A stretch of 64,000 nucleotides of DNA from an uncultured virus (IMG/VR IMGVR_UViG_3300001687_000011) (IMGVR_UViG_3300001687_000011); one strand, 5' to 3'. Shown: positions 1,704 through 60,407, counted from the stretch's first letter. The notes: generated from the letters alone by a model not told the origin. Numbers and translations are program-made.

Positions 1704-1731
1704 ATATCGGCATATTAGGGAAAAAACTTCA
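1704..1731 (-). promoter_or_regulatory. Repeated phage promoter motif, copy 1
   Basis: Minus strand TGAAG-TTTTTTCCCTAATAT-GCCGATAT, followed by an RBS-like GGGAGG and the 1351..1677 gene. Confidence 0.8.
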
Positions 1732-2752
1732 TCTACATTCATCGAGCATACCTTCTTTTAGCTCATAATAATTATGGACAAACCCTTTTCTTCCAAGTTT
1801 TACACGTCTCCGAAGTTTATGAGTCATTTTGCTTAGACGTTTCCTAATAGTTTGAGGGTGTGTCACTTGATCAACCCACTTATTAGGAATCTTTACAAGT
1901 TTACCCTTCCTCATTCTGTAATAGGAATTACCTATTCTTATTCTTTTCACCTTTTATTTTTCCTTTTAATTTTTTATATAGGAATTTTATTGTCCCTGGG
2001 GTTTTCTTTAATATCTCAATTAAATAACAAATACCAAAAATAATAATGTGTAGAGAAATGACTACCCACATAATAGGCCCATATATTATGAGACCACCAA
2101 GTGATTCTAAACAAGTCCCATAATAATTATCAAATAAAAATAATATAATACCCAATACTGTCCAAAATATAAGTAAAATATTTATTATCATGTTTTAATC
2201 CTTTATAAGTTTATTAAGTCCCCACTTTATAACAGGAACAATGAGGAGGTAATATGGTATATAACAAACCATACTTACTATTAATGCACCAAACAACCCT
2301 GTTGATTCAATGAAGGTTATTATGAATTGTCCCATAGTTATTAATAAGAGTCAGAATGATTTACATGACGCTTATTTGCTATACGTGTACGATTTACCGA
2401 GATAAATCTTTGTACTGTAGAGTGTAAAAATCCAAGGCTAAGAATGAGTATCAATCCATCTACTATATTCCCTAACCCTACCAACATATACCACATTCTA
2501 TTTTCAAAAAAATTGAACTCAGGCCACTCTGGGATTCTGCTTTTAAAGTAAATAGCTTTTACAAACTCAGTTACAAAGCTTATAAGATTTGCACAGTGGT
2601 TAATAATATATTCTATCTTTCTCGCTCCACGTTCTTTTCCGAATATTAATACCAGCAGGATAGATCCAACTGCACAAATGACCAGCATGGCCCATATAAG
2701 AAGAAAAAAGAAACATATTGTATTTATAATAAAAGATATCATGTTATCCTCC

Positions 2753-3325
2753 TCAATTTTCTAAGCAGTGAATAAAGCATCCACTATCTGGTTCAGGTGG
2801 ACTATCCTTTGACATCTGAGGAATAGTACCACTGTCACGATATTTCTTCAATGCTGCTTTGCATTTAGCCCTGGTAGCCTTGGGATCATTCTTCACAGGT
2901 CTGGCCTCTAACTTAGCAATAGCATCCGATAAATTTTGTTTTAGGTTCTTAGATAATTCCATAAGTTCTTCAATAATCTTATCCTTTTCTGCAATTATCT
3001 CATCTTTTTCTGCTACTACATCTACAGGTACAGCCTCAACAACCACTGGTTGAACTGTTCCATTAAGACCAACAACATCATTTGCATCAAAAGACATTAA
3101 TTTTCCATTTGTTTCCAGGATAATCAATCCATCTTCCGTAATTCCTTTTAGAGTTCCTGTGGTACTTGTGAGATCCTTAGGAGTAGTGGTTAGTGTGTTG
3201 TAATGAATAATCTCTACCTCCTGGCCTGGTTGAAAAGGGACATTTGTAAAATAGGCTTTAGGAGAAGATACCACCAAGATTGAAATAATTAATACTACCA
3301 AAGTTAATGTAATAAATTGTTTCAT
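2753..3325 (-). CDS. Exported/membrane-anchored protein with coiled coil and C-terminal GCFI motif
   Basis: N-terminal signal peptide (MKQFITLTLVVLIISILVVSSPKA), heptad region, C-terminus PPEPDSGCFIHCLEN. Confidence 0.5.
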   Translation of the reverse strand: MKQFITLTLVVLIISILVVSSPKAYFTNVPFQPGQEVEIIHYNTLTTTPKDLTSTTGTLKGITEDGLIILETNGKLMSFDANDVVGLNGTVQPVVVEAVPVDVVAEKDEIIAEKDKIIEELMELSKNLKQNLSDAIAKLEARPVKNDPKATRAKCKAALKKYRDSGTIPQMSKDSPPEPDSGCFIHCLEN

Positions 3326-5020
3326 TATGGTCTACCTCCATTGTGAAGTTTGTTTAGCAGGTCTTTCAAATCCTGCTTATGCATACAAAGCTCTGAAAAA
3401 GATCTACCCATACTCTTTTTGGGTTGATACTCAATTCCATGACAATCGGTAACTGACATATTCCACTGGATACCTATTCCTGTGGGAAGTCTGGTTTCAA
3501 ACACATACACAGCTTTTCCACCAGCTTGAAAAGATACTCCCTTAAAATTTTGTAGTTCATTTGCAGGGACACCCTCTGGTGCCCAGGAAGCTATAAGTCT
3601 AAGCTGACCATCTTGAATCATTGTTTCCCCCTTTTAGAAATCAATGGTGAATTTAACATCCATTTTTGACGGATCAAGCTCTTTTAATGCTTCATATCGA
3701 GTATAAAAAGTAACCATGTTCATAGTAAGTGGAATGTGGGATATTGTTCTGAAAGCAAGAACTAATCCGTCTTTACTGATATGGTCTCCTGCAATATAAG
3801 CAATATGGTATTCATTATCAAACTTCTCATGAACTAAATACCAACTCCCATTTTTTACACCTTTTAAAGGTTTTAGATCCTCTGCTGCTACTGCTACCCA
3901 AGCAAAATATAGGTTATCAAATCTAATCATTGTTTTTTCTCCTTTTGAAAAAATCAACAAGCAGAAAAACTACCCCCAGCAAACCCAAGGAAATAAATAT
4001 CTTTATCATTTCAGCTAATGTTGGCATTTTCTTTCTCCCTGGCAATTATTCTATCCATAAGTTTATCCAGTTCCTCTATAAGGTAGTGATCTTTTACTCT
4101 TTTTATAATATACTTGGATCTTGTCCCCTGTTTCGTTTTTTCAACCCGAAGAACACCCTTAGCTGTGAGGTAATTTACAAGTTCCCTTTGGTATTCAGTC
4201 AACTTTTTATAGTCACAACCATCGAAAGCATTTATAACCATTCCTGAGAGATCCCCAATCATATTTATAGTGAAGACTGTATATATGCTCATGTGTTCAC
4301 ATCTTTCAATCAACTCTTCTTTTGAAGAATCCTCAAATAATGATTTCATTAATTATCACCTTTCATAGTCTGTTACCTTTAAATATTCTCCACAACCACA
4401 ACAAATTTTTATTTCTCTTCCTGGTAATCTGGATTATTTATATCTTCTACTGGTTTAAACCCCTCATTTTCAAGTTCCTCATCTGTTGACAAACCAACCA
4501 TAATTCCAAACATAATATCAGCATATAGACTTGCTTCAAGAAGTTGTAGACCAGCAAGATACTGAAGACTCTGTGTATAAGCATGAAGTTTACCATCTTC
4601 ATCACGTTTAATATTTTCAAATAAAGGAATCCCAGCTTTGTTTAGTTCCTGCTTGAACGTTCTATGTATTGTAGTACACAAGGCACGTACTTTAGATCTG
4701 AATGTATGTTCTACTGTACTACAAACATCATCGATGATTTCAAGTTCACTTTTTTTCTTATCCATTTTTTATCCTCTCATATCCTTCCTTCAAAAGTTTG
4801 AGAACCCATGTTGGAAGTTCTACTACCATTCCATCAGGGCCAGTGAAAAGAACCCCTGGATCAAAAGCATAATGCTTTAAACCAGTCAACTCCTCAAATG
4901 GATGACATAACTTTCTCCACTCTTCAAGATATAGATCAATATTAGTGGTTTCACGTCCATCTGGCAGTCTTCCATAAAACTTTTTAGATTTTTTCACCCT
5001 TAAATTCCTCCTTAATTATT

Positions 5021-5048
5021 ATATCGGCAATAAGCAGAAATTTCTTCG
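5021..5048 (-). promoter_or_regulatory. Repeated phage promoter motif, copy 2
   Basis: CGAAG-AAATTTCTGCTTATT-GCCGATAT then AATAATTAAGGAGG. Confidence 0.8.
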
Positions 5049-5660
5049 ATTATATCCTGGTAACATCCTTTCCTGTCCACTCCTCAAGCTTTTTTAGTTC
5101 TCTCTTATGCTTCATAAGAGCAAAAAGTCTATTTCCACAATCACGGATGATATTAGTTTGGACTTTATAATCAGCATCAGAGATTTCTTCCCCCAGGCAT
5201 AAAACAGTTTTAGGAACTTCTTTCCTATCCTTGTCCTGGTACATAACAGCACCAATCTCTGAGTCAAAATATACAAAAGATCCTGTTTTGTATTCTTCAG
5301 GGAGTTTCTCAAACGGTAAAACCCCATAAATATTCTTTACAGTTCGATACCTGGTAGGAACTTTGTGACCATATTTCTCAATGTCTTTTACATACTTCTT
5401 TGTTATAATTCTGATACTCCCAATATTTTTACTCATTTACTTTGTCTTCCTCCTCATTGATTAATAGTTCTACTACATCAAGTAAGTTTCTCAATGTTTC
5501 AAATGCATGATAATCAGATATATATCCTATATGATGATTTGCAGCATCTAACCTTACCTTAGCTAATTCTTTTTTTTCTTTAGTCATTAGTCAAAGACTC
5601 CTATAAATAGCATAATTAAAATACCCATAGCAATTATGGTTAAGATAGCTTTTCCTATCA

Positions 5661-6440
5661 TTATTTTTTCTCTTTACTGAGAAGGTTTTTTACTTTATCC
5701 AGTTGTTCTTTTGAGATGGGCTTTCCAGTTTCATTTACCCTAAGAAAAGTTCTCAAGACTTGTTCCCTGGTAGCATTTTCAAGCTCAACTACTTCAACAG
5801 GAAAGTTATCTATATGAATTCTATCATGGGGGTGTAATTCTGAGTATTTCATCCCATTGTAAGTAAACCTATCTTCGATAAACTCACATATTGTAGTGAG
5901 TCTCTGTTTTCCATCTATAATCTCATAGAGGTAATTATGCTTCTCAGAGTACGGAAGCTTGTTAAAAACAAATCGTCCAATTGGGACATCATTAAGAATA
6001 GAAGCTATAAGTAATCTCTTATCTTCTATACTCCATACCAAATCTCTTTGATAGTCTGGGTCTAAATTAACCCCGAATGAGTAAACTGTATGCAATAAAG
6101 ATCCTATTTGGGATCTTAGTGAACTTAACCAAATATCACTCTCATTATGGAGTTGTACTTCAGAGTGTACTTTAGAAAACATATAAACCCAACTATGTAT
6201 GTCTACCTTTCTCCCCACATATTTCCCATATGCAATATCATCAGCTTCAATTTTATACAATTTACCACCATAGAATTTATCAAGTATCACAGGATTCTCA
6301 AGACCACCCAGGACAAATTCAGTATCCCCCACCTCAAACTGCCTGGTAGGTTCAGGAATAAGATCAACATTAAAATAAAGAGCAATCTTTTCCAGGTCAG
6401 TCATTTCTACTACTTTCTTTTTGGCTTTTTTCTTAGGCAT
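5661..6440 (-). CDS. DUF262 (ParB/Srx-like, GmrSD N-terminal type) domain protein
   Basis: Motifs PDYQRDLVW, IIDGKQRLTT, FLRVNETGKPIS; no C-terminal HNH domain. Confidence 0.8.
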   Translation of the reverse strand: MPKKKAKKKVVEMTDLEKIALYFNVDLIPEPTRQFEVGDTEFVLGGLENPVILDKFYGGKLYKIEADDIAYGKYVGRKVDIHSWVYMFSKVHSEVQLHNESDIWLSSLRSQIGSLLHTVYSFGVNLDPDYQRDLVWSIEDKRLLIASILNDVPIGRFVFNKLPYSEKHNYLYEIIDGKQRLTTICEFIEDRFTYNGMKYSELHPHDRIHIDNFPVEVVELENATREQVLRTFLRVNETGKPISKEQLDKVKNLLSKEKK

Positions 6441-6883
6441 GTTTATCTCCCTCAGGATCTCTTCCTGGTATAAGCTCTTCTGGATTTGTTATAATACGTT
6501 TTTCTAAAAGATCAGGAACAGTAGGCATGTATCCAAAATTATATTCCCAGTCTAAAAAATATTCACTATTACAGATTCTTATCAAATCCAGTTCAGCAGG
6601 AGAAATGCCAATAAGATCTATGGTTATCCAACAATTGGGGTTGCTGTTTCTTATCATGATTTATCCTCCAATTTTTTATTGATTATTTTATCAACAACTT
6701 TATAAAAATCTTTGTTAGAGAACCCAGGGTCACAACTATCATGAATGTATCCTTCACATGTACCATCTTTTAATTTCCAGACATGAGCATAAGGATCACA
6801 ATTAATGGTTTGCTTTATCCAGTATAGATTATCAGTATCAGGGTCTCTAACTATTATCTGACCTCTATAAGATAAGATGTTCA

Positions 6884-7288
6884 TTATTTCCCCCTTGTCC
6901 ATAAAAGGTTATTATTAAAATCAAAAATCCTACTGGCATAGGCCCCACGATGTTCTATTTCAATGTTGGCATATATTCTACATATCTCTTTTTCAAGTTC
7001 TTTAAATCGTTTGGTATGATTAGAGCAGTAAGTTACAACGTGTACCATTTCGTGTATCGTGTAATAATGAAAGAAAGGTTCACACTCTTCAAAAAATAAC
7101 CAGAGAGGAAATTGAATTTCCCATCTCTCCTCTTCTGGGTAATAAGTTGCTTCCCCCCTTTGTACCCCTGTAAATTCAATAGTAACTTTATCATGATCAA
7201 TAGCCCAATCATCACAGATTTCTCCACATGTCCGTAAAATCCAATCGAGTCTTGCTTTTTGTGAATCTGTTAAATGATCTTCGTTCAT
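6884..7288 (-). CDS. SprT-like zinc metallopeptidase
   Basis: HEMVH...NHTKRFK (HExxH plus a downstream H-x-x-x-F). Confidence 0.6.
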   Translation of the reverse strand: MNEDHLTDSQKARLDWILRTCGEICDDWAIDHDKVTIEFTGVQRGEATYYPEEERWEIQFPLWLFFEECEPFFHYYTIHEMVHVVTYCSNHTKRFKELEKEICRIYANIEIEHRGAYASRIFDFNNNLLWTRGK

Positions 7289-7329
7289 GATTTTTACCTC
7301 CTACAAATAGATAATGCAAAAATCATGCC

Positions 7330-7536
7330 TTATACATCTAATCTCTTTATATCAGAACTATCTTCTGGGTTTATGCTGTAGACTTCACAGGTTCTACCAC
7401 TTTTACGTTCATGACGTATAAACTCTAAGATTGACAAGCCTTTCTGGACAGCATGATCGGCATTATAGAATCCAAAGAAATCAATTACTTTTTTTATCCA
7501 TTTTGCATCAATCTTAAAGGAAACTTTTATCATCAT
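7330..7536 (-). CDS. Putative ribbon-helix-helix DNA-binding protein
   Basis: N-terminal alternating strand (KVSFKI) followed by two helices; pattern similar to 39644..39838. Confidence 0.35.
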   Translation of the reverse strand: MMIKVSFKIDAKWIKKVIDFFGFYNADHAVQKGLSILEFIRHERKSGRTCEVYSINPEDSSDIKRLDV

Positions 7537-9944
7537 AAATTTAACCTCTCAGTTCATATTTTACACAACAAATTGTTCAACAATTAATCACCTTCACCAT
7601 AAAACCATTCTTTTCCAGAATTATCTTCTACATATATCTTATAATTCCCATCAGAGAAGTGCTTTGCAACAATCATAGTAGCCCATCTTTTAGCAAGATA
7701 GTAGGATCGTGGTCTTTGAAGACAATCAAATCGTCTACCCTTACCTTTTGGGTCTTCCCAGGGAGTTGACCAACATTTTTCTTTACTGTTCCAAAAGGGG
7801 TTGTCATGTTCTTCTACACTTACATAATAATGAGATCCTATACCCCAAAATTTCATAAGACGTATAGTAACAGGTCTGGGATCTTCCTTATTCTCATTGG
7901 GCCACCTTCTGATATGGGGTAAGGGGATATCTTTTATAGTTCCACCATAACTACTCCCTTCGTCAAGTTGCTCTTTTGTCCATTTCACAGTTTAATCCCC
8001 CATTTGTATTCTTGCCACTTGTAAAAAGTCATCAGCAGACATATACACATTTACCTCATAATTTTCATCTACATCATCCTTAATAGTAATGTGAGCTAAT
8101 GAACCCGTAAGATCAATATTCGCAATATATATCATGAGAAATAGTATTCTTCTTCTTCGGTAAGTTCAATGCCCATTTTCTTAAGAGCATCTTTCTTTAA
8201 TTCTTTCATCATGTCATATAAGAAGTCTTCATACTGCTGGAATTTTTCTAAGACAAGCTCCTTAGCTTCCTTCTTTATACGATCATCATCTTGCTTCTGC
8301 ATATCCTCAAAGGACTGGATCAGAGGTAGCTCAACTCCATTCATAGTAAGTTTAATATCGAGACCTTCCTGGTCTTTGGTCAGCTTAATTTCTTCCTGAT
8401 CCTTCTTTTTCAATAAGGTAAATGCATGAATAACTACCCACTCCAACAACCATAGGTGTTTATTTCTCATTTCCTGTATTGATATTTTCATAATTACTCC
8501 TTAATTCATAGGCTCATTGCCATTGAAACCGAAATTCATAAACATCTCGGTGAGTTGCTGTTCTTTCTGTTTCTCAGCAAGGGCTAAAAGAAAACTCTTG
8601 TAAGTTCCTACTCCAATATATGAACCCAGAGTAAAAATAACCAAAGCTTTCTCATTTTCATTTTCCAAGGTATTTACAAAGTCTATGATCTTTGTATAGA
8701 CTTCTATAAGGGTTTGGTCAGGTGTATCTAAGATCCCCAGTGTTACCATAGTGATCTCTGCTGCTCTGGCAGCATCAATTCCTAAAAACTCAATATAATC
8801 GACTCCATTCTTGTTATACTTAATCATGTTCTTCTAAATCTCCCTTAAATTGGTTAAATGGTTAAATCCTTGGAAGTCATAAATTCTTTTCGTCCGATAA
8901 GCCAGTTCAGGTCATCGATGGACATCAGGTATCTCAGTCCATCTTTACCATAAGCAATAGCCCCCACTCCCACTGTGGAAGGTACGACTTCCTTTATATG
9001 CACAATTTCCAGATTATCGTGTTTTCCCCCAGAGTCAATTTTCAGTATGGGTTTCCGATCAGCATTCAACATGTTATTGACTTTGGTACAAAGTTCCTGG
9101 ACTAACTTGGTTTTTCCAGTATCTTTTGTTTCTACCTTCTGAGTCTGTTGTTTACCCTTCTTTGCCATTTTTGGCCTCCTCTTTTAAGTTAGCTATTTCT
9201 TCTTCATATTTCTTTACCCTTGATGTAGAAGTACCCCACTGGTCTATAAATCTTTTTGACATGGTTCCGTCTTTCTTTACTTGTTTTAGTGTATACGTAA
9301 TGTACTTATCATAAGATAGGTTATACCCACTAACAAAAGCAGGAATCCACTTTTTACCAGGGCTATTTCCCCAGCCATCTTCATTATAGAGAACTTTTTC
9401 TCCTATTTTATATTCAGCATGTTCGTCAAAATATCTCTGTTTTGCAGTATATTTTTCAGTTTCAAATTCGTGAACTTTCCTGGAAGATTCTCTTCGTATC
9501 TCTGCAATTTTCTCATCACACTCTGAAAATTTTTTAAGTAATTCTTCCCGTGTCATGATTCTCTCCGTATCTTTCTTAAATAATACTCTACATCATGTAA
9601 TTTCTGAGAAGGGGATAGATCATCTCTTTTGAGTAACCCCAAAAGCTTGTCAACAATACCCCAATGATTCTCCAACCGATCTGATAATATTCCAAAGGCT
9701 ATACACTTATGATTGCAATTGGCCCCCGAAATAACTGTTGTTATCCTGGACTCTTTGGCTTTTACTGCATCATCAAAAGTCAAATGTTGAATATCCTCTT
9801 CCTCAATATTATATCTATCCACTTTACCAAAAATAGGAGTGGATTCAAGGATATCTTTTATAGCTTCCAAGTCTTTCTTGGAATATGATGAAATAACTTC
9901 AATAGCGGTCATCTTATTTTGCCACCTTACTAAAGTGTAAATCA

Positions 9945-10055
9945 TCATTGTTCTGTTCTCCCTTTTAGGTAACAACATGTACAAGCTATTAATGTAATGA
10001 TCTGACTTGACCAAACCCAAGCTACAGCAACATAACTTAAAATTGATTTAATCAT
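9945..10055 (-). CDS. Small hydrophobic peptide (36 aa), first gene after promoter copy 3
   Basis: MIKSILSYVAVAWVWSSQIITLIACTCCYLKGRTEQ*; GGGGG RBS; stop overlaps the ATG (9948) of the next gene. Confidence 0.45.
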   Translation of the reverse strand: MIKSILSYVAVAWVWSSQIITLIACTCCYLKGRTEQ

Positions 10056-10076
10056 ATCATTACCCCCTTATTATTT

Positions 10077-10104
10077 ATATCGGCAATTACTACAAAAATC
10101 TTCG
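10077..10104 (-). promoter_or_regulatory. Repeated phage promoter motif, copy 3
   Basis: CGAAG-ATTTTTGTAGTAATT-GCCGATAT then AAATAATAAGGGGG; lies immediately after a terminator. Confidence 0.8.
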
Positions 10105-10106
10105 AT

Positions 10107-10143
10107 AAAAAAAGGGGATAGTAGTATAACCTACTTATCCCCT
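10107..10143 (-). terminator. Intrinsic terminator
   Basis: Minus strand GGGGATAAGTAG-GTTATA-CTACTATCCCC followed by T7. Confidence 0.75.
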
Positions 10144-10566
10144 AACCTTTATATACCTTGTATAATCAATACACCTGTCAGAACAAGTATATTCATGACT
10201 CTCAATATCATACCATTCAGTTCTTACCCCACAAAAGCAACAAGGTTCCTTGGTTGCAGTACGTAAGACTAATGGTTCTGGATCTTCAATCCTTTTTATC
10301 ATATCTCCTATTTTAGTGTCTGGAAAAGTTCTTTTAAAATGACTCATAGTAATATATCATCAGGATCATCAAAATTTTCACCTCCCCATATATCTATAGG
10401 GGTTGAGGATCGTTTTTGCATTTCCTCTTTTACTCTCTTGAAATACCAGTTAATGGAGTCCAACGTCTCATCTCCAATAACTATATCAGAAGAAGTACAT
10501 GCCATAAGGTTGTTTGAATCAATAACAACTTCCTGTTTTTCAAGTTTCTCAGACATCTCCACTCCT

Positions 10567-11793
10567 TTACACCTTTACTTGAGTATAATCATTCTCCTCA
10601 AGTTGTTTTTTGTTTTTCCATCTCTCAATAGCTTTGACATTTACTACTGGTTTAAGTTCAAAAAGGGTATCTACAAGATCTTCCTGGTTATTCATGACCT
10701 CTCCAATATCTTTGTAGGCCCCAGGTGCCTCTCCAAGATCTGTTAATCCTTTCTTATTTCTACCCCATCCTTCATAGATAATCCCTTCCATCTTTTTTGT
10801 TTCTTCCTCAACATTTAAATCTCTACTTGCTTGGTTTCGACCTTTGCAACGTCCTGCTCCATGAGAACAAGAACTGAAACTATCAGGATTACCTTTTCCC
10901 ATTACAATATAAGAAGAAGATCCTTGATCCCCAGGTATAATTCCATATTGACCAAGCATTGCACTTGTAGCTCCCTTACGATGAACCCAGACATCTTCCC
11001 CAAAATGATTCTCAAGAGAAGCATAGTTATGATGAACATCAAGCTCTAAACTAAACTTGACATTATGGAATTCATGTTTAATAGCTTCCATAACTTCACT
11101 CATCATATAATAACGGTTAGCTCTTGCAAATTCTAAAGCATAATTCATAGCTGTAATGTATTCCTGGCCTTGAGGTTTGTCTGGACGTAAATAAGCAAGA
11201 TCTGTATCTCTCATTCTCTCTTGGCAAACTCTTAGGGCTATAGTATGATACTCTTGACAAATTTTATACCCAAAGTTTCTTGAACCAGAATGTATCATTA
11301 TGGCTATTCTATCCTCTGGAAGTAGTCTCTGGATTTCAATGAAATGATTACCTGAACCCAGTGTCCCCAATTGACGTTTAGCAGATTCTAATTCCCTCTG
11401 TATGATTGGGATATCTGGTGCCCGATTAAAACCTTCCCATTCCTGAGGTTTGGAATGGTGTTTATACCCAACAGGTATTTTTTGTTTAATTTTATTTCTA
11501 ATACTAATAAGTATCCTTTGATCTACATCCTTAAGATATAAATTAGTCAGGATAAAATGCATACCACACCCACCATCATTACCAACTCCATAAGGGATTA
11601 TAGCATCTTTACAGGCACATACACCACCAATAGGCATACCATATCCTTTATGCATATCTGGCATATTGGCTATATGATCAAACGTAACAGACAGGTTAGC
11701 CAAATTTATTGCTTGCTGCATAGCTTCCTCTTCAGGATTAGTAGCATAAATATAAATTGGTATACGATAGTCAGTTATTATTTTGGGTTTCAT
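10567..11793 (-). CDS. rtcB: RtcB RNA 3'-phosphate/5'-OH ligase
   Basis: MPDMHKGYGMPIGGV, GNDGGCGM, LGTLGSGNHFIE, HSGSR, HHNYA, HRKGAT, SHGAGR, EAPGAYKDI. Confidence 0.95.
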   Translation of the reverse strand: MKPKIITDYRIPIYIYATNPEEEAMQQAINLANLSVTFDHIANMPDMHKGYGMPIGGVCACKDAIIPYGVGNDGGCGMHFILTNLYLKDVDQRILISIRNKIKQKIPVGYKHHSKPQEWEGFNRAPDIPIIQRELESAKRQLGTLGSGNHFIEIQRLLPEDRIAIMIHSGSRNFGYKICQEYHTIALRVCQERMRDTDLAYLRPDKPQGQEYITAMNYALEFARANRYYMMSEVMEAIKHEFHNVKFSLELDVHHNYASLENHFGEDVWVHRKGATSAMLGQYGIIPGDQGSSSYIVMGKGNPDSFSSCSHGAGRCKGRNQASRDLNVEEETKKMEGIIYEGWGRNKKGLTDLGEAPGAYKDIGEVMNNQEDLVDTLFELKPVVNVKAIERWKNKKQLEENDYTQVKV

Positions 11794-11817
11794 TTTATAT
11801 CCCTCCTTATATACTTA

Positions 11818-12234
11818 TCAGTATAATTTGGAAATTTCTTCAGCCGTCTTTCTATCCTCTAATATTTCTACTACTAAAGGCCCAACAATAGACCAATCAA
11901 CACAAGGTTGTTTAAGATGAGCATATTTTATAATAGGACATCCAAATGCTGCATCATCTATATATAAATTTCCATAAGCCTTTGGGCTTGAAGTCCAGTT
12001 CTTTTGTGTTGGATTTATATTAACTCCAAATAGCTCTATTCCACATTCTTTTAAATAATCTACAGCTTCATTCAAAGGCTCACCCGATCTCATCGTAAAT
12101 AATATAATCTTCGCTCCTAATTTTTGAAATTCCTTTATATATTTTATAGCATATAATACTGGTTTTCCAATATCTGGATAATCGTGATCTACTATTGTTC
12201 CATCAAAGTCAATACAGATATAAAACTCCCTCAT
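11818..12234 (-). CDS. HAD-superfamily phosphatase (polynucleotide-phosphatase-like)
   Basis: DFDGT motif I, LFTMR, K...YIDD; likely start MREFY at 12234; adjacent to rtcB. Confidence 0.75.
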   Translation of the reverse strand: MREFYICIDFDGTIVDHDYPDIGKPVLYAIKYIKEFQKLGAKIILFTMRSGEPLNEAVDYLKECGIELFGVNINPTQKNWTSSPKAYGNLYIDDAAFGCPIIKYAHLKQPCVDWSIVGPLVVEILEDRKTAEEISKLY

Positions 12235-12872
12235 TTTATTCTTCTTCTCCCTCTCTATCTTTAAACATCTCATCGAGTTGAACTAAAACGTCAGACTCAT
12301 CGGTAAGATACCAAGTTATCTCATTTTCAAAAGCTTCCTGAATAACATCATTTATTAATTCCCTGGCCTCCTCAAAGGTTTCACAATCACGGAGATCATC
12401 ATCATCGACTTCTGTAGATTGAGGTCTTTTACCCCCTATATATCCATCATCAACTTCCCAGGTTATTTTCATTAGATATTTTCTCCTTTTATTATTCGTT
12501 TAAATGCTGCAAAGTATAACCACGGAATGAATTTCCATGATTCGTGACAAATAGAGCATGTTACTTCACTTTCCCCCTCCATTTCACCTTCACAATTAGG
12601 ACAAATTTTATTTAGAAGTTTTTGTGTTGTGTTCATTTACTCCTCCTTGTCAAGAAATTTTATATTTTCTACATAAATATTTTTTACTGTTCCATCAGGC
12701 AACTCTACAACTGCTGTTGTAAACATTCCTGGGCCAGACTCAAATTCTTCATAATCAATCCCAAACTGGTGAAATAGTCCTACTTCTCCTGTTGGTTCAA
12801 GAGTGTACCCAAGTTTTGTTTTATGATATATTCGTTTCAGTATTTCAACCTTTCTCATATAACCCCCAAAGT

Positions 12873-14763: not shown

Positions 14764-14767
14764 AAAG

Positions 14768-37860: not shown

Positions 37861-37861
37861 G

Positions 37862-50121: not shown

Positions 50122-50622
50122 TTATTCTCCATAATCATTCACCTTTTTAAACAGTTTGAACAATATTTTACAACTCTCACCAAACACATCAAAATTTTCA
50201 GATTGTCTATTACCAGCTATATTAACAGTAATGTAATCCTTTCCCAACAAATTAAACCATTGACTAATATGATCAAGATGTTCTTCTGGACAATGCATAA
50301 GATTTATATCTTGAAATTGTCTTCTATAATACCTTATGGCCTTTAGTGTACAGATCTCCCCAGCAGTGTCAAATTTATAGGCTAATCTTATAGTACAATC
50401 AGAATTTTTTGCATTAAGATAAGTCCTTGGAGGATACCCTGGCTCTTGGCATTCTTCCAGACCATAGGTATCCCTTAGAAGTGTAGGATTAGGCCCCTCT
50501 GATGTCATGTAGTCTTTAGGTGCCCATCCACCAGTTGATATATGAAGTGCCTTAGCAACAAAAAGACCTGCCTGGTCACTACCTGTTTGACCACCACTTA
50601 TTACTTTAATTATCTTTACCAC
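50122..50622 (-). CDS. SLOG-superfamily 'molybdenum carrier'-like protein
   Basis: ISGGQTGSDQAGL, GGWAP, YPPRTYLN, NIAGNR. Confidence 0.75.
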   Translation of the reverse strand: MVKIIKVISGGQTGSDQAGLFVAKALHISTGGWAPKDYMTSEGPNPTLLRDTYGLEECQEPGYPPRTYLNAKNSDCTIRLAYKFDTAGEICTLKAIRYYRRQFQDINLMHCPEEHLDHISQWFNLLGKDYITVNIAGNRQSENFDVFGESCKILFKLFKKVNDYGE

Positions 50623-50833
50623 TTAATCTCCTAACCGAGTAAGGCTACTGTATTTAGTTTTTGCTGGCAATAATACTTATTCCCCCATCAGGGGGTATAA
50701 CTTCAATCTCATTTTCTGTCAAACAAGGAACTGGTCTACCATATCTATTGATATGGCTAACAGGTCTCACTTCATTCATTCCATTTCTAATGACACGAAT
50801 TAACATATTTATCATGTTTACCTCCCCTAAAGG

Positions 50834-50859
50834 AAAAAAGGAAGGTTTACCCTTCCTTT
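50834..50859 (-). terminator. Terminator-like hairpin ~25 nt downstream of promoter copy 9
   Basis: AAAGGAAGG-GTAAA-CCTTCCTTTTTT. Confidence 0.6.
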
Positions 50860-50885
50860 CATAGAAGAATTTGCCTATACTATCT

Positions 50886-50913
50886 ATATCGGTATTTTAT
50901 TAAAAAATCTTCA
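50886..50913 (-). promoter_or_regulatory. Repeated phage promoter motif, copy 9
   Basis: TGAAG-ATTTTTTAATAAAAT-ACCGATAT. Confidence 0.8.
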
Positions 50914-51626: not shown

Positions 51627-52196
51627 TCATTTTTTTCCTGCATTTACTTTTCCTCCAATGTCACAAATTATGAATCTGTCATCTAATATATCCGATAAAA
51701 TCCCACTAACCTCTTTCCAGTTTAGCTCTCCATTGGAACACCCAGGTTTAGGAATAGCTACAGATTTCCACCCTTCTTTGTCAGCTAACTCTATTAGTTC
51801 ACTTGCTGATTGTTTTATTAGGTTAATATCTGATTTGCAAGCCCACCCTGGACAAAAATTTGTTATACTCATCTTTGATCTCATATAACTAACTACTTTT
51901 TGATTAAGATCAGAAGCATTCATAATATATATATGGTCTGGTTTTGTTGGAAAACTTACTATATAGGTTCCTTCTATATTGATAATCTTTTGAACATGAT
52001 TTCCATTATCTTTAATAAGTCTACCTAAAGCAAATTCCAATCCAGGCCATTTATCCCTGGCTTGTTTGGCTACACCTTTACCCATAACATTAGACCCATC
52101 CTTCTTAATACAACCATTTGTAGTAATACAGATAGCATCTACTTTACCTACCAAGGAAAAGATGTTTCCATTAAATATACGATTATATACTTCCAT
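51627..52196 (-). CDS. Macrodomain (ADP-ribose binding/hydrolase; DarG/TARG1-like)
   Basis: GNIF, ITTNG, VMGKGVAKQA, SFPTK, AIPKPGCSNGELNW. Confidence 0.82.
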   Translation of the reverse strand: MEVYNRIFNGNIFSLVGKVDAICITTNGCIKKDGSNVMGKGVAKQARDKWPGLEFALGRLIKDNGNHVQKIINIEGTYIVSFPTKPDHIYIMNASDLNQKVVSYMRSKMSITNFCPGWACKSDINLIKQSASELIELADKEGWKSVAIPKPGCSNGELNWKEVSGILSDILDDRFIICDIGGKVNAGKK

Positions 52197-52936: not shown

Positions 52937-55900
52937 TTAAAGATTAAAAGTTATATTTCCGTATAGCATAGTTTGTTCAGTACCATAATATTTTGAAAAG
53001 GCCCTCTTAGGTAAAAATAAATCCTCAAGGGATTGATAGTTGGTCTTCTCTTCAGCTATATTAAAATCTATATGATAAAAATTACTTACCCGATCAACTA
53101 TGTTATAAAATGTGTTCTTATTACATGCAAACTCATAATGAATAGCATTACCTACCCTGTTCTCTTTTTCCAGTTTCATCATTTGGTTTCTGTGTATTCC
53201 CAATTCCCAATCTATTTTGACAGGAACTCCAAACTCTTTCTGTAGGTAATCTTCAGCTACATATTTCATTAATGGGATAAAAGAAAACAAATGAGGAATA
53301 TATATCTCAAAATCAGCAGAATCATGAGTAAACAATACTGGTACAGCTTTGATATTGAGATTTACACACTGCTCATATAAATGCCAGATACCATATCCAG
53401 CCACATTACTTGCTGAGGATTGGATAGGCCAGTTCTGGCACCTTCGTTTTATCTCAGCTTTTTTCATCTGAAGAGGTAAATATAAAGGATCTCCAAACAG
53501 AGTATTTACATATCCCCTCTCTGCTTCTTTATGACGTTCTGCTATCCACTCTGCTACTTTTGGAAACCCAGAGAAAAACCCTTCATATATTTCTCTTGCC
53601 TGTTGTATATCTCCCTGACAAAAATCAACTCCAAATTCATAGATCCCCTTACCATAAAGAATAGCGAAACTTGCATTCTTAGCAAATCTTCTCTGTTTCT
53701 TGGATATCTGCTCTTCTGGGATCTTAAAAATCCTGGATGCTACATATCTGTGAATATCTTTTCCTTGCCTGAAGGCATCGAGTAAATTTTCATCACCTGA
53801 TAATGCTGCCATGAATCGAATTTCATTCTGGGAGTAATCATAATGAAGACTACAACAATTAATATCTCTGGGGACATACATCTCATTAAGTGCTGATCCT
53901 GGGGGGACAGTATGTGCCCCAGACTGCCAACGTTTTGTTGCAGCAGTACAGGCAAATAATGATGGAGTAAATATATATCTTTCTTTTTCTCTAAGTTTAT
54001 TGTCTACAGGAAGAGTGTTATAAGATTCATGCCTCATAAGAGGTTTAGTAAAATCTTTATAATCACATACATTGACATTTATTCTGCCAATCTTACCTTC
54101 AATATACACAGAATTAGATTTAATGACCTTTTTGAACCTCTTTAGATAATAGAGAATATTAAACTCATCAGACCAAGTATCTCTATTATCAATATCTAAA
54201 CCACCCCCAGAAATTTCCTTACCACATAGAGGGCATCTTTCCTCTTTTTCATCAGAAACCCATTTATGACATTCTCTACAACAATATCTATATTTCCCTC
54301 CATATTTTATTTGAGCTTGATACTGGAATTCAAGAACCTCTGCTGCAAATCTCTTAAAGTATAAATCCCAAGTTTTGTCTAAATTTTGAACAGCCTTGAT
54401 TATTTCTTTAGCATCTTTCTGTTTTTGTTTAACATCACCAGACAGATCCTTTAAAAGCATATTAGCATAGGTCATGACATTTTCTATTGTCTCATTCACA
54501 TCATTTTTGTTTATAATTGTAGCAAGATCATCTGAAGATGTAGAAGGTAAAGATAATAAAAACTTTTCAAAATAATAAAGAGTTACCAGAGCAGTTGTCC
54601 AATCAGTTCGATAAATATTCCAAAAGGGTAGTTGACTTTCATATTTATTTGAAAGAGGATTGAATATCTTCTTTAGCTCTTCTAACCTTTCATCAGGAGA
54701 CATAGAAGCAAGTCCTATAATTGTTCCTGCTGACATCTTCTCTTCATCAAGTAAATCTAATCCTTGGATTAAATTATATAAACAATTACATGCTTCATCT
54801 ATATAATAAGTTCTCAATTCTTTAGCTTTTTCATCATTCCAATTAGTACCGTAAGATTCCATTACCCCAGCTAATCTGGCCTGGGCTATATAGTTTGGAT
54901 AATACTGACCAAACATGGGCCATAATTTATTTCTGAGTAATAAAGTATAGTAGCTATCATAACAGCAGTATTCAGCTACTTTCTTCAAAGGTACTGCTGC
55001 CATTCCAGACTTCATAGTAAGACCAGTTTTAATTTCTTCATCACTAATCATAGTCTTCAGCTTCTTTAGAATATCATAGATATCCTTGACAGCTTTTTTA
55101 GCATTTAAAAGCCTAACCTCCATGATCTCTTCCATCTTTTTAGTCTCTTTATTTTTTCTCCTTCGGGGTGCTTCCTCATCCAAGTATTCCATAAAGGAGT
55201 TAAAATCTTCCACCAATAAACTATATTCCCCCTCATACTTCTCTTCTAAGGTAGGCATTAACTTGAATATTGAATTGAAAGAATCTCTAACCTGAGCTAC
55301 AAAATCTTCCCAAAAATCTGCATCAAGGTATTTCCTGGCATTTTCTTTTAGCTTACCTGGGCTGCAATCTATATTACAAAGCACCTGACTATCATTAAAA
55401 TCTATTCTTGTCCCAAATTTAGACCAGGTTAATCCCATTTCATATTTACAGTTATAAGTCCAGGGTTGTTTCCTTTTGAAAAAGTTCAGAAGAATATCTG
55501 CTAAATTTTTAGGAAGAACATAATCTTCAGAGGGCCAATAAAAATAAATAGCTTTTAAAGGTTCTATCCCCACTAAAGAGAATCCTAATATTTTGTTATT
55601 TGGAGACCATACTTCAAGATCTGTAGCTTCATAGTCAAATCCAAGATCATTATATTTTTCAAACTCTGGTAAAGCTGTTTCCAACTCTTCAATATTTATT
55701 ATCTCAAACCAGTCAGGGTCTTTAATAATAGGAGTATTTATTATAGTATCACTTGTATCAAATCTTTGTATAAGCTGCTTTATTCGTATTATCCATGATC
55801 TATACATACTACTCCCCAGACCACCATTTCTTGCAATATAGCTTGGATGGAAAGCTGCTCCATATCTAACATCAGCAATTTGATAAGGAGACATATGAGA

Positions 55901-56383
55901 GAGTTTAGTAATCTTATAATCTTTTTTGTAACTATCTGGTAGCATTGAGTAAGCTGCTGTGCCACCTAAGAGAATGACAGTATTAGCATTTAACTCATTT
56001 AAGAATTGTTGTAAATGTATTTTACAGAATTTACACTCATCCTCTTCAGGAGTTCGTGTTCTTCCATCAGCTTTGACGGGCCAACAGCAATTTATATTTG
56101 CTATTGCATAATCGGTAAGACCTAATTCATTTATTGCTGCCCGTAAAATACTTCCAGACTTAGCCTCTGGATAAAAAGGTCTTTTATATTTAGCCTCTTG
56201 TTCCCCAGGTGCTTCCCCTACAAAAATTACTCTAACTTTTTCAGGACTACCAAAAATTTCAAAAGGGGCAAACTTCGTATCCATCTGTCTGCCCCTCATT
56301 GGACAACCTTTATCACAAATATTCAATTTTTCACGTAAATCTACAAAGGTAATATTATCCATACCTAACCAAACACCTTCCAC
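52937..56383 (-). CDS. polA: Family A DNA polymerase with N-terminal family-4 uracil-DNA glycosylase domain and 3'-5' exonuclease (start may be ATG 56362)
   Basis: UDG: GEAPG..E...RPF, Fe-S Cys, FHPSY; exonuclease: FDYEAT, YNCKYE, YCCYD; polymerase: DYSQNEIR, RRFAKNASFAILYG, NWPIQS, THDS. Confidence 0.92.
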   Translation of the reverse strand: MEGVWLGMDNITFVDLREKLNICDKGCPMRGRQMDTKFAPFEIFGSPEKVRVIFVGEAPGEQEAKYKRPFYPEAKSGSILRAAINELGLTDYAIANINCCWPVKADGRTRTPEEDECKFCKIHLQQFLNELNANTVILLGGTAAYSMLPDSYKKDYKITKLSHMSPYQIADVRYGAAFHPSYIARNGGLGSSMYRSWIIRIKQLIQRFDTSDTIINTPIIKDPDWFEIINIEELETALPEFEKYNDLGFDYEATDLEVWSPNNKILGFSLVGIEPLKAIYFYWPSEDYVLPKNLADILLNFFKRKQPWTYNCKYEMGLTWSKFGTRIDFNDSQVLCNIDCSPGKLKENARKYLDADFWEDFVAQVRDSFNSIFKLMPTLEEKYEGEYSLLVEDFNSFMEYLDEEAPRRRKNKETKKMEEIMEVRLLNAKKAVKDIYDILKKLKTMISDEEIKTGLTMKSGMAAVPLKKVAEYCCYDSYYTLLLRNKLWPMFGQYYPNYIAQARLAGVMESYGTNWNDEKAKELRTYYIDEACNCLYNLIQGLDLLDEEKMSAGTIIGLASMSPDERLEELKKIFNPLSNKYESQLPFWNIYRTDWTTALVTLYYFEKFLLSLPSTSSDDLATIINKNDVNETIENVMTYANMLLKDLSGDVKQKQKDAKEIIKAVQNLDKTWDLYFKRFAAEVLEFQYQAQIKYGGKYRYCCRECHKWVSDEKEERCPLCGKEISGGGLDIDNRDTWSDEFNILYYLKRFKKVIKSNSVYIEGKIGRINVNVCDYKDFTKPLMRHESYNTLPVDNKLREKERYIFTPSLFACTAATKRWQSGAHTVPPGSALNEMYVPRDINCCSLHYDYSQNEIRFMAALSGDENLLDAFRQGKDIHRYVASRIFKIPEEQISKKQRRFAKNASFAILYGKGIYEFGVDFCQGDIQQAREIYEGFFSGFPKVAEWIAERHKEAERGYVNTLFGDPLYLPLQMKKAEIKRRCQNWPIQSSASNVAGYGIWHLYEQCVNLNIKAVPVLFTHDSADFEIYIPHLFSFIPLMKYVAEDYLQKEFGVPVKIDWELGIHRNQMMKLEKENRVGNAIHYEFACNKNTFYNIVDRVSNFYHIDFNIAEEKTNYQSLEDLFLPKRAFSKYYGTEQTMLYGNITFNL

Positions 56384-57268: not shown

Positions 57269-57387
57269 AAAAAACCAAGAGACAAAAACCCACAGAATAA
57301 AAAAACCAGATAGCAAAAAACCAAGAGGAAAAGGAGTAAACCTCAAGGAAAAAATCACATCTGGAAAAAATCTTCTATAGAAAAACT
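57269..57387. repeat. Array of ~8 imperfect A-tract units (A5-7 followed by CC/TC) at ~14-20 bp spacing
   Basis: aaaaaaccaagag, aaaaacccacag, aaaaaaaccagatag, aaaaaaccaagagg, aaacctc, aaaaaatcac, aaaaaatcttc, aaaaactc in a non-coding gap. Confidence 0.55.
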
Positions 57388-57471
57388 CTTTCCATGATTA
57401 ACGTTATGATTAGTGTCATACTCACACTCCACCCCTATTATATAATAATGTATTTCACACTATATTTTGTA

Positions 57472-59991
57472 TTAGTCCATCCTGTAACTTGATTTTCCCT
57501 CTTCATCCATAGATGTTACAATCTGTGAATTATAATATGGAAAGTTAGCCACATGACTTACCACAAAACAGTTGTCTACAGGTAACTTTTCAGTAATATG
57601 CATAGCTTCTTCAGTGTTCTTTTTATCAAGTGCAGCTAAGAACTCATCAAAGACCAGTAATCCACACCCACCAGCTATCTCAAATAGTTTAGATAAAATG
57701 TATAGATCTATTAAACACTTTTCCCCACCAGAACAATTATCATAATTAATCCAACGTTTGTTTTTCAAATAATAAACTCCGAAATCTGGTTTAATCTTTT
57801 TATTCTTCTGTTGTTTGTAAGTCTCTACTTTAAATTTTTCATTTGTCAAAACTTTAGCTACTCCTGCCAGAATTGTCAATATTACTTCTCCATCAGGGGA
57901 CACCAAATCCATATATTCCTTATTGAGACTCATAATAGCTTTAGCAGCTTCATAATCATCTTTCAAAGAAAGACACTGTTGTTCCAGAGTGCCTATTGTA
58001 TTATATGCTTTATTGATATTTTCTATCCTAAGTTTCTCTGTAAATAACTCATTGAAATGGTTCTGTAATGTTTTAACCTTTTCTTGGAGCATAGCACTCA
58101 TCTCTATCAAATTATCATACTTGCCAGTATCAACTGCTTGTTCCATTACTTCCTGTAACTCTTTTTGAAACTGTTCCTTATTATGCAGAATTCTTTGGGC
58201 CATAGCTTCCATTTTATCTTTATCGATAATTTGACCACAAGCATAACACTTATTATTATGTATATCCGTCAACTGGGTATCACAAACTATTAATTCTCGT
58301 TCTACCCTGGATTTATTCTTCTGTTGAGAAGACATCAATTCTCTCATTGTAGCAATTTGATTACTGACTTGTTCATACATTTTACTGAAAGTATCTTTTT
58401 CACTCTTTACTTTAGATAAATCCCCTTCTACCTCTGAGAGTCTTTTATTAAGACCTTCTAAATCCATAGAGGTCTCAGTAGAAATCATTTTGTTGATCTC
58501 TTCAATTCTGATATTAATATTACTGATGTCTGTTTCTAACTCTCCAACATAGTCTTTAGAAGAATCATATAAAGCCTTTGCAGCATCATAAATATTATCT
58601 ATGGTTGTCAAACCTAAAATATTACTTATCAGTTTTACCCTCTCGGTAAATTTATAACTACTTAAAAATTCTTTTCGATCCTGATTAAAAATCATGAGAT
58701 CGAGACGTTTTATAAAGGGTAACTCTTTTTCCAGAAAGTCACATGTTGTAGAATGAAGACCTTTATCCTCAGGCTTCCCATCAATCTCAACCTTAGTAAG
58801 TCCTGATCCCTTCTCTGTACCCCTTATTATAGTGTAAACATGACCACTATAAGCAACTTTTAATGTTAATTTAAAATCCTCTGCCCACCAAGATACATAA
58901 TCTTTAGGTGCAGTAGCTCCCTCTAAACTAACTCTTATAGCTTTTAACAATGAACTCTTACCAGTACCATTTTCCCCAGACATCAAGGCAACTCCACCGA
59001 GTTCATTAAAATCAACATCCAAATTTGGAATTGTCAAAAAGTTTTCTATAGACAATGACAGCAATCTAAACCTTAGATCTAAAGCCTTATCGTCCATAGA
59101 AACTTTTGTAATAATATTCCCATGTATATCCATTAAATGGTGTTTATCCTCTAAAACCTTATCTAAAATAGTCAGTGGATTAAAAATCTTAGTAGGTTCC
59201 AAGTCAATAGCTTCCTTGATTACTGACTCTAAAGGCTTTTTAGTCTTGATATAAGGATCTTTATAAATCTTATTAGTTGTCAAGAACCTAAGTCTTTTTG
59301 TCCCCTTGACTAATTCTTTAGGAGTCTCTATTCTTTCCCATTTAAGGGTAGAAGAATCGAGCATTATAACCCCAACATCTGGACTATCAGAAAATGAGTT
59401 CTGCAATGGAGTCCCTGGGACTACAATTTTATCCTTTACAATTTGATGTTTGTGTATATCACCCACGAAAGCAAGTTTAAATTTAGATAAGTCTATACTA
59501 AATCCAGATTTCATTTTATATCCAGATCCAGTAGAAACTCCTTGAGGAGTAAAATGACCTACAAAAATATCATGTTCCTCTACTTCATCAAAATTTATAG
59601 TAGGTTCCCATCCAAGAAAATAATATTTAAGTCCTTCTATATTAATATATTCACGATGTAAATATTTAGCATTAGATACCCTATTAACAATAGTTAAATA
59701 AGTATTTTCCTCAAAAACTGTAGTATCACTCCTGACCTCATCTAAATCATGCTGCCCATGAGTCATATAAACTGGGCAATCAAATTTTTCTATAAAATCA
59801 ATTGCTACATTAGTTGTTTTTGCAGAGGGTTTGGATACATGAAATAGATCCCCTGATATAACAACCGAAGTAGGTTTAAATGATGATAACCAATCACCGA
59901 GATACAAAAATTGGTGTAATCGATAATATGGTTCATCTATGTTATATACTCTAAAATCGTTTATATGCACATCTGCAAGATGTAAAATCAT
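57472..59991 (-). CDS. Fused SbcD(Mre11)-SbcC(Rad50) nuclease/ATPase
   Basis: N-terminal DVH, GDLF, GQHD, GH, GDIH phosphoesterase motifs; then Walker A GENGTGKS, coiled coil with CYAC zinc hook, signature SGGE, Walker B LVFDE, SH loop, all in one 839-aa frame. Confidence 0.9.
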   Translation of the reverse strand: MILHLADVHINDFRVYNIDEPYYRLHQFLYLGDWLSSFKPTSVVISGDLFHVSKPSAKTTNVAIDFIEKFDCPVYMTHGQHDLDEVRSDTTVFEENTYLTIVNRVSNAKYLHREYINIEGLKYYFLGWEPTINFDEVEEHDIFVGHFTPQGVSTGSGYKMKSGFSIDLSKFKLAFVGDIHKHQIVKDKIVVPGTPLQNSFSDSPDVGVIMLDSSTLKWERIETPKELVKGTKRLRFLTTNKIYKDPYIKTKKPLESVIKEAIDLEPTKIFNPLTILDKVLEDKHHLMDIHGNIITKVSMDDKALDLRFRLLSLSIENFLTIPNLDVDFNELGGVALMSGENGTGKSSLLKAIRVSLEGATAPKDYVSWWAEDFKLTLKVAYSGHVYTIIRGTEKGSGLTKVEIDGKPEDKGLHSTTCDFLEKELPFIKRLDLMIFNQDRKEFLSSYKFTERVKLISNILGLTTIDNIYDAAKALYDSSKDYVGELETDISNINIRIEEINKMISTETSMDLEGLNKRLSEVEGDLSKVKSEKDTFSKMYEQVSNQIATMRELMSSQQKNKSRVERELIVCDTQLTDIHNNKCYACGQIIDKDKMEAMAQRILHNKEQFQKELQEVMEQAVDTGKYDNLIEMSAMLQEKVKTLQNHFNELFTEKLRIENINKAYNTIGTLEQQCLSLKDDYEAAKAIMSLNKEYMDLVSPDGEVILTILAGVAKVLTNEKFKVETYKQQKNKKIKPDFGVYYLKNKRWINYDNCSGGEKCLIDLYILSKLFEIAGGCGLLVFDEFLAALDKKNTEEAMHITEKLPVDNCFVVSHVANFPYYNSQIVTSMDEEGKSSYRMD

Positions 59992-60379
59992 TCTTCTATT
60001 AACCTTCCCCTATTCCTCTAACACATAATCTCTATACTTACCCTCAAAGACTTCCTCTATCCTGTATCTTAATTTCTCAGACAAATTTGTTTTCATAAGT
60101 AGACACTTTGGACATGGTTCAATACAAGGGTCAAAGCAAGACAAAGCACATACACACTTTGCTTTACTGTAAAAAATCTCACAGTCCTCAATTACAGGAC
60201 ACCCCTCACACTTACACACTCACACTAACCTCTCTCTCTAAATTACTTAGTTTTTTCTTCTAAGCTCCTCCTTAATCTTTTCATATCCTCAATGATCCTT
60301 TCACAAGCTTCATCGATTTTATCACAACATTTTGATATAACTTCAAATATATTTTCAGACACTTTTCCACCTACTTATA

Positions 60380-60407
60380 TTATCGTCACTTTATTAAAAA
60401 ATCTTCA
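60380..60407 (-). promoter_or_regulatory. Repeated phage promoter motif, copy 11
   Basis: TGAAG-ATTTTTTAATAAAGT-GACGATAA then TATAAGTAGGTGG. Confidence 0.72.

Follow-up and report, generated by a model that had tools for sequence, protein, structure and literature searches.

A recurrent intergenic cassette resembling sigma-28 promoters is a very probable promoter class of an uncultured phage

The 64-kb stretch of DNA analysed here in its entirety (hereafter the window), from the uncultured virus IMGVR_UViG_3300001687_000011, is tiled by approximately 130 open reading frames (ORFs), all on the minus strand, and only 6.7% of it lies outside ORFs. That small fraction holds all 11 copies of the bipartite cassette that is the subject of this study (Table 1), a distribution expected with a probability of approximately 1e-13 under random placement, and six of the gaps bearing a copy measure only 46 to 52 nucleotides (nt), which is the cassette alone. 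An alignment of the 11 sites gives one constant order of elements on the gene strand, namely a YGAAGwwTTTT box, approximately nine unconserved bases, a (T)GCCGATA(T/A) box, a stretch rich in A with AAaTA at its end, a strong Shine-Dalgarno (SD) sequence of the AGGGGG or AGGAGG type, and a start codon. The first box (for convenience, the -35 box) reads TGAAG in eight sites and CGAAG in three, and the second (the -10 box) reads GCCGATA in seven sites with CGATA invariant in all. The two boxes are the same distance apart in 11 of 11 sites and the spacer positions carry almost no information, indicative of selection acting on both boxes and not of a mobile cassette copied recently. Judged from sequence, the 11 elements very probably constitute a single promoter class.

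A pattern search for YGAAG-N15-NNCGATA returned 12 minus-strand matches in the window and none on the plus strand; dinucleotide-preserving shuffles (n=100) gave an expectation of 0.06 (standard deviation 0.24) and in no case reached 12. The 11 minus-strand elements listed in an earlier sequence-only reading of this DNA are all among these matches; its box variants and invariant CGATA agree exactly with our counts for the 11 sites, its exact 15-nt spacing is reproduced in every one of them, and its coordinates are right, with starts one base lower than those of our 27-nt cores because the elements had been counted as 28 bp. The twelfth match (36749-36775) was rejected as a cassette, being inside a NADAR-domain ORF, devoid of both T-run and GCC, and scoring below 8 bits on a weight matrix. 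This matrix, of 30 columns, was built from the 11 sites and used to score both strands of the window. The sites themselves score 32 to 37 bits (23.6 to 34.7 bits in leave-one-out scoring), the next-best places, at 11814-11843 and 48176-48205, reach 19.8 and 9.9 bits, and no place on the plus strand of the window attains 8 bits. The sites of the window are intergenic and on the gene strand; equal frequency inside genes or on the plus strand, which the sequence-only reading had named as an outcome speaking against it, was not seen. The higher-scoring of the two additional places has the full cassette architecture, lies 22 nt before the RtcB start (11793) and overlaps the end of the upstream ORF, while the lower-scoring one falls within the end of an RF-1-domain ORF, upstream of a four-gene run that ends in the gene for an RNA polymerase beta' homologue. 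Half-sites are similarly one-sided: YGAAGWWWTTT occurs 12 times in sense and never in antisense orientation (10 promoter sites, the RtcB variant and a coding match at 9901), and GCCGATA eight times in sense and never in antisense orientation (seven promoter sites and an eighth occurrence at 22156). We attribute the two lone half-sites to chance, the one at 9901 being coding and having no -10 box, and the one at 22156 overlapping an SD and ATG and having no -35 box.

Table 1. Cassettes and associated features of the window. Scores are in bits of the 30-column weight matrix; nt, nucleotides; aa, amino acids.
Feature	Positions	Strand	Score (bits)	Context
Cassette core TGAAG...GCCGATA	1705-1731	-	32.5	TGA is the upstream ORF stop; ATG 1677, 27 nt past CGATA
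Cassette core CGAAG...GCCGATA	5022-5048	-	33.8	Stop of the upstream ORF ends at -1; GTG 4997
Cassette core CGAAG...GCCGATA	10078-10104	-	35.0	Directly after terminator; ATG 10055 opens a 36-aa ORF
Intrinsic-terminator-like hairpin with a run of seven T	10107-10143	-		-17.8 kcal/mol; ends 2 nt before cassette 10078-10104
Degenerate twelfth cassette (CTGAAGAAATTT ... ACTGATAAG)	11814-11843	-	19.8	CTGATA replaces CCGATA; full cassette architecture
Cassette core TGAAG...GCCGATA	15777-15803	-	32.7	ATG 15749
Cassette core TGAAG...ACCGATA	19968-19994	-	33.6	TGA is the upstream stop; first good start 43 nt past CGATA
Cassette core TGAAG...GCCGATA	24422-24448	-	34.6	Upstream stop ends at -1; start 18-24 nt past CGATA
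Cassette core CGAAG...GCCGATAG	38463-38489	-	35.1	ATG 38438; block runs to Thg1-like and NADAR genes
Cassette core TGAAG...GTCGATAA	40949-40975	-	32.2	ATG 40924
RNA polymerase beta' homologue, full-length, 1133 aa	43132-46533	-		All five Rpb1 domains (Pfam)
Orphan protein P0001, 197 aa, predicted all-helical	46543-47136	-		Directly upstream of beta'; earlier 'sigma-like' candidate
Weak site, good -10 half (GACCGATATA), poor -35 half	48176-48205	-	9.9	
Mini-ORF of 11 codons, MKGRVNLPFFL	50827-50862	-		Starts at the usual cassette position, 24 nt past CGATA of the 50887 site
Cassette core TGAAG...ACCGATA	50887-50913	-	37.4	TGA is the upstream stop
Cassette core TGAAG...GCCGATAA	52623-52649	-	33.0	TGA is the upstream stop; ATG 52598
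Cassette core TGAAG...GACGATAA	60381-60407	-	32.3	GTG 60362 opens a 39-aa ORF; block runs to the SbcD-SbcC fusion gene

The cassettes are fitted closely to the translation signals of the genes on either side. In four of the 11 sites (1705, 19968, 50887 and 52623) the TGA of TGAAG is itself the stop codon of the upstream ORF, a double use that had been claimed for several copies; in four further sites a stop codon ends immediately 5' of the motif, and in one the stop codon is 8 nt away on the upstream side. An SD and start codon are found, the latter 18 to 27 nt downstream of CGATA, in nine sites (the exceptions being 19968 and 50887), which bears out the statement that a ribosome binding site usually follows closely, and the terminator said to precede the third copy directly is the hairpin at 10107-10143, only two bases away. 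The window has otherwise few clear intrinsic terminators in gene orientation, and the scarcity of such terminators between sites makes the sites look like restart points in long polycistronic arrays. At the 50887 site the mini-ORF overlaps a terminator-like hairpin with a T-run (-12.6 kcal/mol) and the next SD and ATG are at 50815, possibly a leader-peptide or attenuator-like layout. Among the 24 other gaps no 8-mer is common to three or more, no dyads were detected, and the word TTTGTTGTG is present in two gaps only; sigma-70-type matches in positions 1-20000 are not enriched (87 versus 81.5 +/- 9.1). With no other recurrent motif in these gaps and sigma-70 matches at background, the cassette is the only recognisable promoter class in the window. 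Two longer gaps, at 62280-62574 (295 nt) and 57325-57471 (147 nt), have neither an ORF nor a motif copy nor an Rfam match.

Two unlike boxes at an invariant distance, a free spacer, a fixed strand and translation signals just downstream, together with the absence of any dyad and of RNA pairing, point to a promoter of the alternative-sigma type, and the bipartite fixed geometry, the intergenic co-oriented placement and the fixed distance to the SD and start codon all speak for the dedicated promoter class proposed in the sequence-only reading. Conservation does run past the two boxes into the leader and SD, as might be expected if the cassette were instead an operator for a phage regulator, a signal for RNA processing or translation, or a recombination cassette shuffling gene blocks, and repeats at module borders can indeed serve recombination in T4-type phages. 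We consider these non-promoter roles very unlikely: no consensus pairs (0) were predicted for the RNA of the 11 aligned cassettes, the cassette has no dyad symmetry and its two boxes differ from each other at a fixed distance across a free spacer, the boxes agree with a known sigma consensus at 13 to 15 of 16 positions (see below), and the sites occupy the positions expected of promoters, in one case immediately past a terminator.

The known sigma in question is sigma-28, whose consensus is given as TAAAGTTT-n11-GCCGATAA for Escherichia coli in one paper (PMC2859248) and as TAAA-N15-GCCGATAT for Bacillus subtilis SigD in another (PMC5200910). Measured against the -10 octamer GCCGATAA/T, GCCGATA is present in seven and CGATA in all of the 11 phage sites, and six match the octamer exactly (GCCGATAT in five, GCCGATAA in one). 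The likeness of the -10 box to GCCGATAT/A that the sequence-only reading had pointed out is therefore real, and it is stronger than claimed given that the -35 box plus T-run (TGAAGwTT) agrees with TAAAGTTT at 6 to 7 of 8 positions, retaining the AAG core and the T-run, to give the overall agreement of 13 to 15 of 16 positions for both boxes. The bipartite layout and strict spacing are also common to both. The core -10 box of sigma-28 promoters, as reportedly described by Koo et al. in 2009, is CGATA(T/A). In other respects the phage sites depart from sigma-28 promoters, and do so uniformly in all but one case. TAAA is found in none of the 11, all of which have YGAAG and hence G at -35 position 2, while C occupies -35 position 1 in three; the spacing is 16 nt from YGAA (versus 15) and 12 nt between the octamers (versus 11) in every site. 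Work on Chlamydia reportedly found spacings of both 11 and 12 nt to be tolerated. The shifted -35 (YGAA in place of TAAA) noted previously thus stands as regards TAAA, and is qualified by the resemblance of the box with its T-run to the E. coli octamer. The genes served differ as well, sigma-28 serving flagellar and chemotaxis genes and the phage sites replication, nucleotide, RNA-repair and unannotated genes.

Other promoter classes fit less well. The promoters of extracytoplasmic function (ECF; group 4) sigmas have AAC in the -35 and CGT in the -10, as in the TGAAAC-N16-CGTA of B. subtilis SigW. They have in common with the cassette a -35 opening with TGAA, a -10 beginning with CG 17 nt further on and a strict spacing, whereas AAC is absent from all 11 cassettes, GAAG and CGATA are present in all 11, and the -10 is a GCCGATA block of 7 to 8 nt rather than CGT. 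The T4 late promoter element (TATAAATA, recognised with gp55 and located approximately 6 nt before the start) occurs in only one of the 11 cassettes (10079), and words resembling TATAAATA abut the SD, which would be lost from a transcript beginning 6 nt further on. A promoter of the T4 middle type can also be constructed from the cassette, with a phage activator on YGAAGwwTTTT, the host primary sigma using as its -10 the hexamer TAtAaT, which opens with the TA of CGATA, and the G of CGA serving in the manner of an extended -10. This hexamer is indeed TATAAT-like, its final base being T in eight of 11 sites, no TTGACA-like -35 hexamer is present at 17 bp, and the relatives of the phage belong by taxonomy to a T4-related family. 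Against this, the best-conserved part of the box, GCCGA, lies upstream of the hexamer and would be needless for a primary sigma, the last four hexamer positions are weakly conserved, the start would fall in or on the SD, and scans of the window ORFs with PHROGs and Pfam revealed nothing like MotA or AsiA; the T4 MotA box is, moreover, one whose sequence we take to be unrelated to the phage box. We regard this construction as very unlikely.

A closer parallel in organisation is provided by the promoter classes of phage-encoded sigmas (SPO1 gp28 and gp33/34, phiEco32 gp36, phage 7-11 gp47 and T4 gp55), which likewise consist of a recurrent, phage-specific, co-oriented intergenic motif differing from the host primary consensus, in large phages with transcription genes of their own. 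The box sequences of the SPO1, phiEco32, 7-11 and T4 classes presumably differ from those of the cassette, and in these phages the cognate sigma gene is there, whereas none is recognisable in this 64-kb window. To our knowledge, none of the four carries a full-length beta' homologue, as this phage does. Phage sigmas that group with SigD, SigH and SigI exist, SPO1 gp28 being an example (bioRxiv 10.1101/2021.11.12.468384). Phage-specific promoter sets of the alternative-sigma type are accordingly already known as a kind, and it is the sequence class that is new here.

We favour a reading in which the 11 elements and the degenerate copy before RtcB would be sigma-dependent promoters of a large phage of virulent type, with YGAAGwwTTTT as the -35-like element and (T)GCCGATA(T/A) as the -10, 15 nt apart. 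By analogy with sigma-28, transcription would start approximately 7 nt past the -10 box, at a point within TAAATA, the conserved stretch rich in A, giving leaders of only about 15 to 20 nt that would begin just before the strong SD, and the promoters would split an array of more than 64 kb and approximately 130 co-oriented genes into at least 11 restart points. The box sequences would be those of a group-3 (FliA/SigD-type) sigma, and the reader would be a phage-encoded sigma-like factor of sigma-28-like specificity, encoded beyond the limits of the window or so diverged that it escapes recognition, on an RNA polymerase that may contain the phage's own beta'. Whether a dedicated phage-encoded factor reads the sites is a question on which we are evenly divided. 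It is favoured by the uniform departure from the bacterial consensus (G at position 2 and the longer spacer in all 11 sites and, in three of them, C at position 1), by the precedent of SPO1, phiEco32, 7-11 and T4 among large phages, and by the risk of entrusting replication genes to a sigma liable to sequestration by its anti-sigma factor.

The principal competitor is the host's own flagellar sigma (FliA/SigD/WhiG type), in which case most of this early/middle-type 64 kb would be expressed only when the flagellar regulon is on. The exact -10 octamer in six sites and CGATA in all, and a T-run past the -35 box that mirrors TAAAGTTT, are what such a sigma would read, no recognisable sigma gene lies within the window, and the motif is the only recurrent promoter-like one in a region rich in early-type small genes. 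Its strict form is also found upstream of bacterial genes such as cheX, and real sigma-28 promoters may tolerate it. Sigma-28 is, however, restrained by an anti-sigma factor and active in only part of a population, which would make it a risky sole route to the expression of replication genes. Further points against it are the absence of TAAA from all 11 sites, a spacer that exceeds the E. coli and B. subtilis consensus by one base in every site, and the C at position 1 in three sites; single -35 changes lower an E. coli sigma-28 promoter 4- to 10-fold and T to C at position 1 accounts for an approximately 10-fold loss (PMC2859248). Literature searches found no paper on a phage that uses sigma-28 promoters. 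On balance we think recognition by the host flagellar sigma somewhat unlikely. A fuller version, which we hold to be unlikely, is that the phage has no sigma of its own and expresses its early/middle programme (replication, nucleotide and RNA-repair genes and beta') from host sigma-28 promoters, perhaps with a hybrid polymerase in which the phage beta' would take the place of the host subunit, so that infection would be gated by motility; in a variant of it, the orphan protein encoded beside beta' would be a specificity factor unlike sigma-70 that mimics sigma-28.

Several results weigh against the favoured reading of a phage-encoded sigma-like factor, among them the lack of a recognisable gene for one in the 64-kb window, which is part of the genome. 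No domain of the sigma70, ECF, FliA or gp55 type was found by Pfam in the products of 130 ORFs of at least 50 amino acids (aa) on the minus strand, to which the scans were confined, nor any sigma family by PHROGs in 122 ORFs of the window or by NCBIfam (E<=0.05) in its 71 unannotated ORFs. For the sole candidate that had been proposed, P0001, no likeness to any sigma could be detected. Were this an early region, its transcription could not be initiated by a sigma made by the phage itself, and the predicted leaders, which start only 1 to 5 nt before the SD, are short. The closest known genomes belong to a group of Rhizobium phages (Cuauhnahuacvirus, Kleczkowskaviridae) typified here by RHph_TM30, the nearest complete relative. 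RHph_TM30 does not carry the motif, its 207.6-kb genome having six pattern matches of which none has a T-run or GCCGATA, and no match to Sigma70_r2 was found in it either.

The description of P0001 as a 'sigma-like protein' in the sequence-only reading found no support in Pfam, PHROGs, NCBIfam, PDB sequences or folding. It has no match in Pfam even at E<=10, nor in PHROGs, NCBIfam or PDB sequences, and only one homologue (P0005) among 1.84 billion representatives, with 40% identity over residues 108-191. Structure models were unusable (AlphaFold pLDDT, the predicted local distance difference test, of 35 from a two-sequence alignment; Atlas pLDDT of 0.42), and the Atlas returned no usable match. 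Its N-terminus is weakly similar to the same-position gene of RHph_TM30 (pairwise E of 2e-5). All-helical, beside beta' and with this weak N-terminal likeness, P0001 is a candidate beta'-associated factor rather than a demonstrated sigma. The orphan family so defined has three members (46543-47136, P0005 and L001:8099-8755), which have in common the N-terminal motif KGY...EE(I/Y).YQ.VFH.K, and in two of the three the gene is immediately upstream of a phage beta' gene. In bacterial beta', the clamp-helix segment docks sigma. Its counterpart in the phage beta' is diverged and recognisable, agreeing at 29 of the 65 positions where 24 bacterial sequences concur to at least 80%. There is no beta-like ORF in the 64-kb window, and the complete RHph_TM30 genome (207.6 kb) has no match to the conserved beta domain PF00562, suggesting that beta' may be alone in these phages and hence form a hybrid polymerase with host subunits.

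In comparison with RHph_TM30, PolA is 38% and beta' 37% identical, each over 99% of its length, gene order is the same, and the weakly similar orphan gene is likewise just upstream of beta'; base composition and host are very different. A 4.2-kb megablast query found no counterpart among 50,697 phage records, and a beta'-based scan of IMG/VR gave identities of at most 35%. The metagenome scan was dominated by bacterial rpoC via the universal catalytic motif, and among the fetched loci only that of RHph_TM30 (L001) has more in common with the window than beta'. P0005 and alignment A1, used as queries in further scans, brought up no matches. In these searches of the phage, IMG/VR and metagenome collections, nothing nearer than the RHph_TM30 group came to light. 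As for the host, a G+C content of 0.34, a purine-rich coding strand and strong SDs leave us with the impression that a Bacillota-type host would be compatible, and inference from small conserved phage proteins gave mixed matches to Streptococcus, Yersinia, Erwinia and others.

Outside the window, a motif scan of IMG/VR returned at least 106 stretches, with one match per listed locus and on different contigs, the weight matrix run over approximately 2.7 Mb of fetched loci gave no convincing site outside those chosen by the pattern itself, and the 58-nt cassette gave only chance matches in the phage collection. In 185,579 species genomes the strict form TGAAGWTTTTT-N9-GCCGATAW was found at 111 loci, of which 23 are transaldolase N-termini and most others coding or chance occurrences. 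Nine of these loci with a downstream ORF were hand-picked and the ORFs scanned for domains, revealing CheX (L297), a receiver-domain protein (L274), DUF3391 (L278), TAL_FSA and an acyltransferase, and no match in four. The CheX locus and its two similar counterparts (L361 and L367), all Desulfatibacillum-like, have intergenic sites upstream of cheX, and the intergenic site upstream of the gene for DUF3391, an HD-GYP-associated domain, recurs in four near-identical loci (L305, L321, L342 and L352), all five being of Pantoea/Enterobacterales. The bacterial sites upstream of DUF3391 and cheX may, by their sequence, be sigma-28 promoters that naturally have G at -35 position 2, which suggests only that bacterial sigma-28 may tolerate the TGAAG form.

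The cassettes are a clean, compact and tractable promoter set in a phage lineage with almost no public relatives and a full-length beta' gene. If a phage factor reads them, the result would be a new sigma/promoter pair, of sigma-28-like specificity and potentially orthogonal to the transcription of the host; should host sigma-28 be the reader, this would be the first case that we have found of the core genes of a lytic phage being wired to the flagellar regulon, with infection success tied to motility. Either way, the 52-nt cassette, comprising promoter, short leader and strong SD, offers a direct means of mapping transcription units in a genome that is otherwise beyond annotation.

Several of the genes in the window have features of their own. 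The minus-strand gene at 52937-56383 encodes a family-A DNA polymerase of 1148 aa fused to an N-terminal domain of the uracil-DNA-glycosylase superfamily, as is also the case in RHph_TM30, and that at 57472-59991 (minus strand) encodes a single 839-aa fusion of an SbcD-like phosphoesterase and an SbcC-like ATPase. Genes for RNA repair and nucleotide signalling are dense, all on the minus strand (10567-11793, 33258-34034, 37105-37980, 36399-37085, 40029-40616, 48120-48485, 50122-50622 and 51627-52196), the set comprising an RtcB ligase, a Thg1-like 3'-5' polymerase, a nucleotidyltransferase-like protein, a phosphoesterase, NADAR, Macro and cpYpsA SLOG proteins and an RF-1-domain (ArfB-like) protein. 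Together with a tRNA-Phe gene at 12873-12948, this set looks like a kit for countering host defences that target tRNA or NAD.

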